A program made the translations under genes and the position numbers. Positions 23,582-46,758 of a DNA stretch of 64,000 bases are shown piece by piece. The notes under the pieces were generated by a model that searched no databases, was not told where the DNA came from, and saw only the letters and a list, made by a program, of their open reading frames with translations. Within the stretch, counting starts at the first letter, position 1; each line of letters opens with the position of its first letter. Source of the stretch: Thermoproteota archaeon (GTDB taxonomy: Archaea; Thermoproteota; Thermoprotei; Thermofilales; B9-G17); NCBI GenBank assembly GCA_029258885.1, contig JAPDJW010000001.1, positions 1-64,000 of the forward strand. The letters run 5' to 3'.

Positions 23582-23599
23582 ATTTACAAAATTGTTTTA

Positions 23600-23685
23600 C
23601 GCCGGGGGTGGGATTTGAACCCACGAGGGCCGTTTGGCCCACAGGCTCTCAAGGCCTGCGCCTTAGTCCACTCGGCCACCCCGGC
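23600..23685 (-). tRNA. tRNA-Ser(UGA), no intron
   Basis: GCCGGGG/CCCCGGC acceptor stem, CAGGC-CTTGAGA-GCCTG, long variable arm, G73. Confidence 0.95.
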
Positions 23686-23848
23686 GAAATAAATAACTGC
23701 TGTAAACGCTTATATATCTTCTCCCAATGGAACGTTTTTCTGTTAAGTCATACTCTCTTGGGCGAAAAAAGATAAATTAACTGGAAATGCGGAATTTTGT
23801 AGAGAAAACTTAATTAGTATGCCTGAGTAGTGCTTATAGATATAATAG

Positions 23849-25075: not shown

Positions 25076-25941
25076 AAATTGGCATTTTTACGCGTAAAAA
25101 AGTCTTTGATAAAATTGCTAATATTATAGCGAGTATTGTTCGAAGGTGTGAGCAGAAAAAATGCGAAGTGTTGCTAGATGAATTTCTGAGGTCCATGCTA
25201 ATGAACAGTTACGTTAGAGGAAAAATGTATTTTGGGGATCTTAGGGCAAACAGACCCGACATACTCATTACGATTGGTGGGGATGGAACTATTCTTTACG
25301 TAACGAGGTACTTTGATTTTCATCCTCCTCCAATACTTGGAGTAAGCTTTAAATCGCTTGGTTTTCTCTGCGAATTCCCTTTATGCGACCTATTAAAATA
25401 TTTAGATGGTATTATAGAGGGGAAGTTCTGTATTATTAAGAGAAGATTAGGTAAGGTAGTATTAGGGTCGTTTAGAGACTACTTATTAAATGATCTCGTT
25501 ATTTTATCTGGGAGCCATGGTAAACTTATAAAGGTGAAGGTATCCGTAGATGATCATACATTATTCCAAACTAGGCTTGATGGTTTAATTCTTTCGACAA
25601 GTACAGGGTCGTCAGCGCATGCTTTGTCAGCGGGAGGTCCAATTATAGAAGAGGGACTTAATATAGTTGAAGTAGTTCCGATCTGTTCTTTTTCAACTTT
25701 TTTAAGACCTGTGATATTATCTCCTAACAGGAAGGTATCCGTTGAAGTTTTATCAGGAAGTTGCATGGCATTATTAGATGGTGGATTGAGCAGAGTAACG
25801 TTAAAAGCGAAAGATAAATTAACATTTAGGTTATCTAGAAGGAGTATAAAATTTGTAAGTATTGGAAAAAGGGACTTCTACAGGAAAATGACTGAGAGAA
25901 TGATGGGGGATTATTATTTGGATGGAATCATAAAATTTTAA
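25072..25941 (+). CDS. nadK: NAD(+) kinase
   Basis: GGDGT, STSTGSSAHALSAGGP. Confidence 0.92.
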   Translation: MKIGIFTRKKVFDKIANIIASIVRRCEQKKCEVLLDEFLRSMLMNSYVRGKMYFGDLRANRPDILITIGGDGTILYVTRYFDFHPPPILGVSFKSLGFLCEFPLCDLLKYLDGIIEGKFCIIKRRLGKVVLGSFRDYLLNDLVILSGSHGKLIKVKVSVDDHTLFQTRLDGLILSTSTGSSAHALSAGGPIIEEGLNIVEVVPICSFSTFLRPVILSPNRKVSVEVLSGSCMALLDGGLSRVTLKAKDKLTFRLSRRSIKFVSIGKRDFYRKMTERMMGDYYLDGIIKF

Positions 25942-26082
25942 TGGCTTTCTGTGCTTATAGTTAATTAATGTAAAATGAGGTGTACTGGCTAAGTTAATTA
26001 TCCAAGAAAGAGCATAGAGCAGCAGGTTTAAACATAGGTCGGATATTTTAACATTTGAAGGAGTACCATTAGTCAGTAAAGG

Positions 26083-26090
26083 ATATATTA
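26083..26090 (+). promoter_or_regulatory. TATA box for tRNA-Arg(CCU)
   Basis: AAAGG then ATATATTA, ending 23 nt before G26113. Confidence 0.5.
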
Positions 26091-26111
26091 GAGAGAAACA
26101 ATATTTTCACT

Positions 26112-26196
26112 TGGCCCGTGGCCTAGTGGATAGGGCGGCGGCCTCCTAATGCAGGGAGATAGCCGTAGGTCGTGGGTTCGAATCCCACCGGGCCCG
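26112..26196 (+). tRNA. tRNA-Arg(CCU), 12-nt intron 26149-26160, U1:C72 mismatch
   Basis: TGGCCCG/CGGGCCC-G acceptor, GCGGC-CT-CCT-A[intron]A-GCCGT, A20, GTGGG-TTCGAAT-CCCAC. Confidence 0.92.
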
Positions 26197-26415
26197 CTAT
26201 CTGGTACTTATTTTTCTGTGGTCGTATAGTGCTCTTAACATTAGAATATCTCCAACTCTTACAGGTCCTTTCACGTTTCTGACGTATATACGGCCTTTTT
26301 CGGGTCCTTCAAGTACTCTGACCCTCACTTGTGTAACCTCGCCAGCGACACCCGTTCTACCAACTATCTGTATCACTTCAGCGGGTGTTGCATCATCAGA
26401 CACACGTTTAGACAT
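26197..26415 (-). CDS. rps28e: 30S ribosomal protein S28e (divergent C-terminus)
   Basis: [37 protein letters not shown]. Confidence 0.95.
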
Positions 26416-26628
26416 GCCTATCCCCAAATGAACTCCCAGCAAGAGACTGATATTCTTTTCGCCTCAATACCAGCCAGACTACTATTTGTATTTATTCTGC
26501 CTTTCACATTTTTCCTTTTTCATCCTAATTGCTACTCATCATCACTCTTTTCTTAACTATTGCTAAACATGATTTCTCGCATAAACGATATTAATGGGTA
26601 TTATAGAGGTTATATATGGTGACGCTTC

Positions 26629-26808
26629 ATGTCAAGAAGAAGACGCCGTGAAGAGGCACCGCCACCTTTGTCAGGAGCTGGACTTATGAGGTTCTTTGAA
26701 GAAGAAATCCGAGGGATTAAAATAAGGCCTGAATACGTAGTTATTTCGGCTTTCATACTCATAGCAACAGTTATATTAGCCCATGCAGGAATATTCACAA
26801 TGCCATAA
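26629..26808 (+). CDS. secG: Protein translocase subunit Sec61-beta (59 aa; below ORF-track cut-off)
   Basis: MSRRRRREEAPPPLSGAGLMRFFEEE..KIRPEYVV plus TM helix; GGTGA SD at 26618. Confidence 0.93.
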   Translation: MSRRRRREEAPPPLSGAGLMRFFEEEIRGIKIRPEYVVISAFILIATVILAHAGIFTMP

Positions 26809-26836
26809 TCCTACTTTCTTAGCTAAATGGTAATGT

Positions 26837-26844
26837 TTATTTTA
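26837..26844 (+). promoter_or_regulatory. TATA-like box for tRNA-Arg(CCG)
   Basis: TTATTTTA ending 23 nt before G26867; register ambiguous by 1-2 nt. Confidence 0.4.
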
Positions 26845-26864
26845 ATCTGATGGCGTAAACATTA

Positions 26865-26952
26865 TTGCCCGTGGCCTAGTGGATAGGGCGGCGGCCTCCG
26901 GTTAATCGTGGGAGATAGCCGTAGGTCGTGGGTTCGAATCCCACCGGGCCCG
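26865..26952 (+). tRNA. tRNA-Arg(CCG), 15-nt intron 26902-26916, U1:C72 and U2:C71 mismatches
   Basis: TTGCCCG/CGGGCCC-G acceptor; body identical to the CCU copy except position 2, anticodon base 36, position 37 and intron. Confidence 0.9.
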
Positions 26953-46231: not shown

Positions 46232-46316
46232 GCGGGGGTGGCCGAGCAAGGTCAAAGGCGCCGGACTCAGGCTCCGGTGGCGTAGGCCTGCGTGGGTTCG
46301 AATCCCACCCCCCGCA
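46232..46316 (+). tRNA. tRNA-Leu(CAG), no intron
   Basis: GCGGGGG/CCCCCGC-A, CCGGA-CTCAGGC-TCCGG, variable arm. Confidence 0.96.
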
Positions 46317-46452: not shown

Positions 46453-46758
46453 GTAAGCCGGCTATAGCCCGCTTTCTGTACTTGGGGGATTTATCTTGGA
46501 CCTCGGCCTCTACACGGGGATATCATCCGACCGAGGCCTGCTACAGGTTGGCCGTTTCACCCACTCCTTTAACATCGTCTGCGGGTTAGCTCGTCCCCCG
46601 TTACCGGAGAGACTTCGCCGCGGTCATTCTCATCTGTTAAAGGGGGTCTCGTTTCTGATCCAGAGCCAGGGCTCTCGCCCTACCGCCTTACGGCGGTTGT
46701 AGCCCCCGTGTAAGCGGAGCTTCCTCCGGGCGAACCCGGGCACCCCCAGCCGGCTTAC
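46453..46758 (-). ncRNA. rnpB: RNase P RNA (archaeal type A-like)
   Basis: 11-bp P1 GTAAGCCGGCT, GAGGAAGCTCCGC / ACAGAAAGCGGGCTA P4 strands, CAGAAAC and TGAAAC conserved regions. Confidence 0.95.

Follow-up and report, generated by a model that had tools for sequence, protein, structure and literature searches.

Editing of tRNA 5' ends is known from the mitochondria of amoebozoans and chytrid fungi, including those of Acanthamoeba and Dictyostelium (DdiTLP3), and is the closest described system to the one reported here (PMC6471195). The mismatched bases of mitochondrial tRNAs are substitutions that are transcribed and then excised. The closest enzymology is the in vitro repair carried out by MaTLP of M. 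acetivorans and BtTLP of B. thuringiensis. Such Thg1-like proteins (TLPs) complete 5'-truncated tRNAs in vitro with Watson-Crick specificity, non-His tRNAs included (PMC3061083, PMC6471195). TLPs occur widely among archaea and bacteria, and which substrates they act on in nature has been an open question since 2010. Sequenced archaeal and bacterial tRNA genes were stated to contain no 5' mismatches (PMC3061083), a 2019 review found that TLP substrates 'remain to be identified' (PMC6471195), and a 2025 preprint called TLP function unknown where no source of truncated tRNAs could be predicted (PMC12632743). The templated repair role is so far shown for archaeal TLPs only in the test tube. Two further systems are relevant. 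The addition of G-1 to tRNA-His by Thg1 belongs to the same superfamily and uses the same 3'-5' chemistry. Leaderless tRNAs have also been mentioned in this context (PMC3061083, PMC10100707); those of Nanoarchaeum equitans, which is without RNase P, have complete encoded 5' ends.

We describe here an archaeal genome in which tRNA genes lack pairing bases at the 5' end of the acceptor stem. The genome resembles the mitochondrial systems in that the defects are encoded, are confined to the first three 5' positions and affect many tRNAs; in that an intact 3' strand usable as template is kept and a TLP is encoded; and in that the set of affected tRNAs varies between related lineages. It differs in that the host is a free-living archaeon rather than an organelle, in that only tRNAs with a G-rich start are affected, and in that promoter spacing suggests bases that were deleted and perhaps never transcribed. 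No natural substrate of MaTLP or BtTLP is known, whereas here substrates can be predicted from the genome: tRNAs without G1, G1-G2 or positions 1-3, which are the substrates of the MaTLP and BtTLP assays (PMC3061083). The encoded protein is a close MaTLP homologue. Unlike G-1 addition by Thg1, the additions proposed here would fall at positions +1 to +3 of non-His tRNAs. As with the leaderless tRNAs of N. equitans, the promoter lies at a short, nearly fixed distance from the tRNA 5' end, so transcripts should start at the mature end or within about 2 nt of it. In contrast to N. equitans, a full RNase P RNA is present and 13 genes begin inside the acceptor stem.

The DNA analyzed (the window) is a stretch of 64,000 nt in which four tRNA genes, Arg(CCT), Arg(CCG), Ser(TGA) and Leu(CAG), were placed using ARAGORN, the Rfam tRNA model and direct reading of the sequence (Table 1). 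An earlier note on this DNA had described a clash between the acceptor 3' strands of the two tRNA-Arg genes and their 5' ends, bodies that are otherwise intact and identical, and perfect stems in the tRNA-Ser and tRNA-Leu genes. ARAGORN, Rfam and direct reading agree with this description, the two bodies being identical save for anticodon and intron. CCA is absent from the encoded 3' end of tRNA-Arg(CCT). The Rfam model matched this gene with 51.9 bits and marked its 1:72 pair as non-standard, and the T at that place probably belongs to the spacer and not to the tRNA. The match to tRNA-Arg(CCG) was clipped to model positions 3-68 because of the unpaired end.

Table 1. Positions of tRNA, promoter and RNase P RNA features in the 64,000-nt window
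Feature	Position	Strand	Description
tRNA-Arg(CCT), nominal positions 1-73	26112..26196	+	5' strand TGGCCCG, 3' strand CGGGCCC + G73; intron-containing
T at nominal position 1 of tRNA-Arg(CCT), facing C72 (26195)	26112..26112	+	
tRNA-Arg(CCT) intron, 12 nt, after position 37	26149..26160	+	ARAGORN with introns; Rfam alignment gap
BRE/TATA motif AGTAAAGGATATAT of tRNA-Arg(CCT)	26075..26088	+	23 nt to nominal position 1; G2 (26113) is the 25th nt after the motif
tRNA-Arg(CCG), nominal positions 1-73	26865..26952	+	5' strand TTGCCCG, 3' strand CGGGCCC + G73; intron-containing
TT at nominal positions 1-2 of tRNA-Arg(CCG), facing C72 and C71	26865..26866	+	
tRNA-Arg(CCG) intron, 15 nt, after position 37	26902..26916	+	ARAGORN with introns; sequence
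BRE/TATA motif GGTAATGTTTATTT of tRNA-Arg(CCG)	26829..26842	+	22 nt to nominal position 1; G3 (26867) is the 25th nt after the motif
tRNA-Ser(TGA), internal control	23599..23686	-	Perfect 7-bp acceptor stem GCCGGGG, fully paired
tRNA-Leu(CAG), internal control	46232..46316	+	Perfect acceptor stem GCGGGGG, fully paired
Archaeal RNase P RNA, full length	46453..46758	-	Rfam RF00373, 153 bits, model 1-288 of 288

The mismatched bases are upheld by independent data. Metagenome contigs from four public runs, belonging to four studies of hydrothermal vent and sediment, span positions 25600-26143 and 26169/70-26896; they carry 0-1 other letters overall and none at either tRNA-Arg 5' end. The same letters in four studies indicate that the T and TT are real DNA and no assembly slip. 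A search of sequencing runs for this stretch listed no RNA run that contains it. The neighbors of the tRNA-Arg genes are housekeeping genes, among them, as judged from their translations alone, those for ribosomal proteins S28e and S10 and Sec61-beta; the locus is not a mobile element.

The genome is that of an uncultured hydrothermal archaeon and consists of a 2.10-Mb draft in 26 contigs, scored 99.9% complete. Acceptor stems were tabulated for 45 tRNA genes, comprising the Rfam hits, one gene recovered by a T-loop scan and four whose introns are unusual. Non-pairing acceptor bases were present in 13/45 genes and solely at 5' positions 1-3 (19/135 cells at positions 1-3 vs 0/180 at positions 4-7; Fisher p = 5e-8), so that the confinement first noticed in the two tRNA-Arg genes holds for pairs 1-72, 2-71 and 3-70 across the genome. 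The shortfall is a single base in Arg-CCT, Arg-TCG, Val-CAC, Lys-TTT, Gly-TCC, Ala-GGC and a CAT tRNA, two bases in Arg-CCG, Arg-TCT, Ala-CGC and Pro-GGG, and three in Gly-GCC and Pro-CGG. The 3' strand is untouched, being the same in affected genes as in intact paralogues and in the orthologues of relatives. Truncation depends on the expected start of the tRNA: it was found in 11/20 genes expected to begin with GG, in 2/3 with GCGG and in 0/22 of all others (p = 2e-5). This bias is compatible both with mutational shrinkage of G runs and with a requirement for a purine at the transcription start.

The affected genes are needed, since each of the 13 is the sole gene for its anticodon and codon use is heavy. 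Two truncated tRNAs are the sole readers of AGA and AGG, which together make up 85% of Arg codons, and affected tRNAs likewise read large shares of the codons for Gly, Ala, Pro and Lys. No intact spare copy of any affected tRNA was found when the whole genome was scanned for T-loops, and the only extra tRNA recovered in this way was the truncated tRNA-Pro(GGG), overlooked by Rfam and ARAGORN alike. No tRNA-Leu(GAG) was recovered by Rfam, by ARAGORN or by the T-loop scan. Three truncated genes were clipped by Rfam to positions 3-68 or 4-67. Genes of this kind are under-scored or clipped by tRNA gene finders.

In order to compare promoter positions, a de novo motif search was performed over the 70 nt that precede each of 40 tRNA genes, and genes were aligned on the motif end. 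An upstream BRE/TATA element with the consensus AGAAAAATTTATAA was found. Between the motif end and position 1, 23 intact genes had a mean gap of 24.7 nt and a median of 24 nt; the gap was 24-27 nt in 21/23, with five further genes that have gaps of 29-35 nt left out. In 12 defective genes the gap was 21.6 nt to nominal position 1 (Mann-Whitney p = 5e-6 vs intact genes) and 23.2 nt to the first pairing base. The motif thus stands about 3 nt nearer to nominal position 1 in defective than in intact genes. This shortening suggests that the first bases were deleted and not substituted, i.e. that the defective genes are 5'-truncated, and the bases that seem mismatched resemble promoter spacer. The gap to the first pairing base would place that base at the expected transcription start, a position to be read with an uncertainty of about 1-2 nt from motif alignment in AT-rich DNA. 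The RNase P RNA and SRP RNA genes were considered as calibrators of the distance from TATA to start; their motifs are weak (scores 2.3 and 5.1), the gaps are 23 and 28 nt, and the calibration is accordingly a weak one.

The archaeal start signal is a pyrimidine at -1 followed by a purine at +1. A T or C precedes the first pairing base in 13/13 affected genes here and in 5/5 of a sister genus (about 0.59 expected; chance about 8e-5), which fits that signal. Position -1 is a purine in 21/28 tabulated intact genes, and in the other four, judged by eye, it is A in all, giving 25/32. The aligned 5' G of the RNase P RNA is itself preceded by a T and is the 24th nt after its weak TATA-like motif. Retention of a full RNase P RNA indicates that the usual 5'-leader nuclease is still present, and leaders may well be made and cut.

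The 64,000-nt window contains no TLP gene, as the earlier note had stated. An HMM search for Thg1/TLP found a single full-length Thg1-like gene elsewhere in the genome (G000:C2:186889-187683). Its product of 264 aa has Thg1 and Thg1C domains (PF04446, 98.5 bits, plus PF14413) and matches the M. acetivorans TLP (5AXK) over residues 14-259 of 264 (E = 4e-54), and it retains the RxDG and SDE motifs. The G-1 of tRNA-His is encoded in this genome, as a g before GCCCGGG with C73, so the textbook role of Thg1 would be dispensable here. A DUF72 gene (G000:C2:187686-188399; L001:2262-2975) begins 3 nt past the TLP stop codon. The pairing was not seen beside the TLP genes of 12 relatives, and the adjacency is probably incidental.

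We consider it probable, from the arrangement of genes, promoters and enzyme, that the truncated tRNAs are completed by templated 3'-5' polymerization by the TLP. The DNA would omit the first 1-3 nt of the acceptor 5' strand and keep the 3' strand (C72, C71, C70...). After transcription the TLP would add the missing nucleotides by Watson-Crick pairing to the 3' strand, which serves as template, and would continue as far as position 1. We infer from this scheme mature tRNAs with non-encoded bases and the TLP as the enzyme that adds them. The earlier note had read the two tRNA-Arg genes as substrates of editing of the protist type. The checks made at the level of genes all favor a substrate role; the likeness to protist genes gave way in one respect, as the genes look truncated and not substituted. 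Transcription may start directly at the first pairing G, a step that we regard as quite possible and somewhat short of probable. The predicted substrate would then be a leaderless 5'-triphosphate tRNA, for which neither RNase P nor ATP activation would be needed. By an alternative route, of the mitochondrial type, a few extra 5' nucleotides would be transcribed and then removed. In its fullest form, the proposal is that reverse (3'-5') polymerization is an obligatory part of tRNA biogenesis in this free-living archaeal lineage, with about 29% of tRNA genes giving leaderless 5'-triphosphate transcripts from position 2, 3 or 4 that do not pass through RNase P and that the TLP completes on the 3' strand; we put this form forward tentatively.

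The distribution of the trait among relatives was assessed by pattern scans limited to tRNAs with a GGGCCCG-type acceptor stem. The tRNA-Arg orthologues of 29 relatives all start GGGCCCG. Among 41 genomes of the order, real matches were found only in this genome and in G001, a sister genus that is the sole other genome of the family; the scans found no truncated tRNAs in the other 39. Two bases are missing in five tRNAs of G001 (Val-GAC, Val-TAC, Val-CAC, Arg-GCG and Met), and its remaining readable tRNAs, including Arg-CCT, Arg-CCG, Arg-TCT, Gly and Pro, are intact, two Rfam hits left uninspected aside. The two sets share only Val-CAC and the CAT tRNA, each with one base missing here vs two in G001. 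Differing truncated sets in relatives are the pattern expected where a repair activity allows 5' ends to decay. A TLP is encoded in 23/41 genomes of the order, both family members included, and most of these have perfect tRNA genes. Co-occurrence, which the earlier note had proposed to examine, is weak: truncated tRNAs occur in the order only in the family in which both members carry a TLP, whereas 23/41 genomes have a TLP and only 2 have truncation. The TLP is needed for the model and is not specific to the truncation trait.

Across 120 genomes of the class, scanning added only four single-base cases, in three genomes, and a Thg1 domain was not detected in two of these three. The two belong to another family of the class, and each has a single mismatch at position 1: Val-GAC with TGGCCCG (L102; G101:C1:872219-872309) and Arg-GCG with CGGCCCG (L103; G103:C5:27108-27198). 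A lone mismatch is thus possible without a TLP, and the promoter spacing of the G101 case is compatible with plain substitution. When 185,579 species were scanned for two-base truncation of this stem type, only G001 had more than one real case among the matches listed, which may not include records of the window's own genome. In Archaeon HR01 (L164, CT|GCCCG), an unrelated archaeon, and in the complete genome of the bacterium Ca. Lucifugimonas marina (L177, AT|GCCCG), isolated tRNA-Met genes were seen in which two 5' bases do not pair. Most matches outside the family were rejected as false, such as those in which a leader CGCCCGTGG abuts a normal GGGCC start or in which a D-arm intron is present.

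Among the competing explanations, the one that survives best is that no repair takes place and the tRNAs function with an unpaired or missing 5' end, an acceptor stem of 4-6 bp and a longer single-stranded 3' tail. Mismatches at 1:72 are tolerated in some tRNAs, such as bacterial initiator tRNA. The lone N1 x C72 mismatches in the two class genomes with no detectable Thg1 domain, and singletons in a few unrelated genomes, speak for such tolerance. We nevertheless judge it unlikely for the genome at hand. Three bases are gone in Gly(GCC) and Pro(CGG) and two in four or five others, and a stem of 4-5 bp is implausible in a hydrothermal organism whose stems are otherwise all G-C. The unpaired 3' bases, 22 positions in the 13 genes, are without any drift, and a compensating change of the 3' strand was seen in no lineage.

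Slippage of RNA polymerase at the start could add G's before an encoded G run with no separate enzyme, and reiterative transcription at G runs occurs in bacteria. The restriction of truncation to tRNAs with a G-rich start agrees with such a process, and 11/13 truncated genes need only G's before a G. Slippage cannot yield the G-C-G of Gly(GCC) or the G before C of Gly(TCC), and five genes hold a single G before C (TTG, GTG, ACG, TATG, TTCG) and so offer no run. It would also produce ragged lengths where tRNAs require an exact end, and we regard it as improbable.

Still less probable, to the point of being very doubtful, is a supply of the missing bases by splicing from a tiny upstream exon, a trans-joined 5' piece or a permuted gene. 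Split and permuted tRNAs occur in related archaea, and this genome is rich in odd tRNA introns, including D-arm introns and one of 86 nt. The promoter motif, however, lies 20-23 nt before nominal position 1 and thus leaves no room for an upstream exon or a bulge-helix-bulge helix, no conserved element or partner sequence is present in the flanks, which are AT-rich spacer, and the 3' trailers contain no candidate sequence. Split, permuted and acceptor-stem-intron genes were rejected on the promoter position and the lack of a conserved flank. Finally, assembly errors, or pseudogenes with working copies in unassembled DNA, might be imagined for a 26-contig draft, and are least credible of all given identical letters from four independent studies, a completeness of 99.9%, strong promoters, intact bodies, 13 anticodons with no other copy, and like defects in related genomes and many metagenome contigs.

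Templated completion by the TLP is thus the reading that we favor. No earlier description of 5'-truncated tRNA genes in archaea was found in the openly accessible literature searched. This genome and its relatives supply predictable substrates, namely 13 named tRNAs with defined missing bases, together with a matching enzyme, and the question of TLP substrates therefore becomes directly testable. If the reading is true, archaeal TLPs gain their first natural substrates, and tRNA 5'-editing would be carried from protist mitochondria to a cellular genome. It would also mean that decay of 5' ends is in progress, the loss in the same tRNA being a single base here but two bases in the sister genus, and reaching three in other genes here. 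These genes offer a natural series of decay states for the study of gene erosion under a repair activity.

Metagenome scans found G001-like strains in eight samples. Contigs of further relatives, with 66-76% protein identity to this genome, carry truncated Arg-TCG, Arg-CCT and Arg-TCT, and more distant contigs carry truncated Lys-CTT. The trait may extend beyond the family. Three AT-rich contigs (L183, L191 and L207) combine archaeal-type promoters with a tRNA-Lys(CTT) or tRNA-Arg(TCT) truncated by 2 nt; the proteins of L183 and L207 are about 50-57% identical to those of this genome, and L191 has no protein match.

Two near-duplicate tRNA pairs were also observed in this genome, Val-TAC/GAC (G000:C2:375824-375927 and C2:347371-347474) and Glu-TTC/CTC (G000:C3:131649-131760 and C2:377920-378032). 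Promoters, 5' halves and D-arm introns are identical within each pair and the anticodon differs, which suggests recent duplication or gene conversion. The tRNA-Arg(CCT)/(CCG) genes of the window form a similar pair, but with an unequal number of missing 5' bases.
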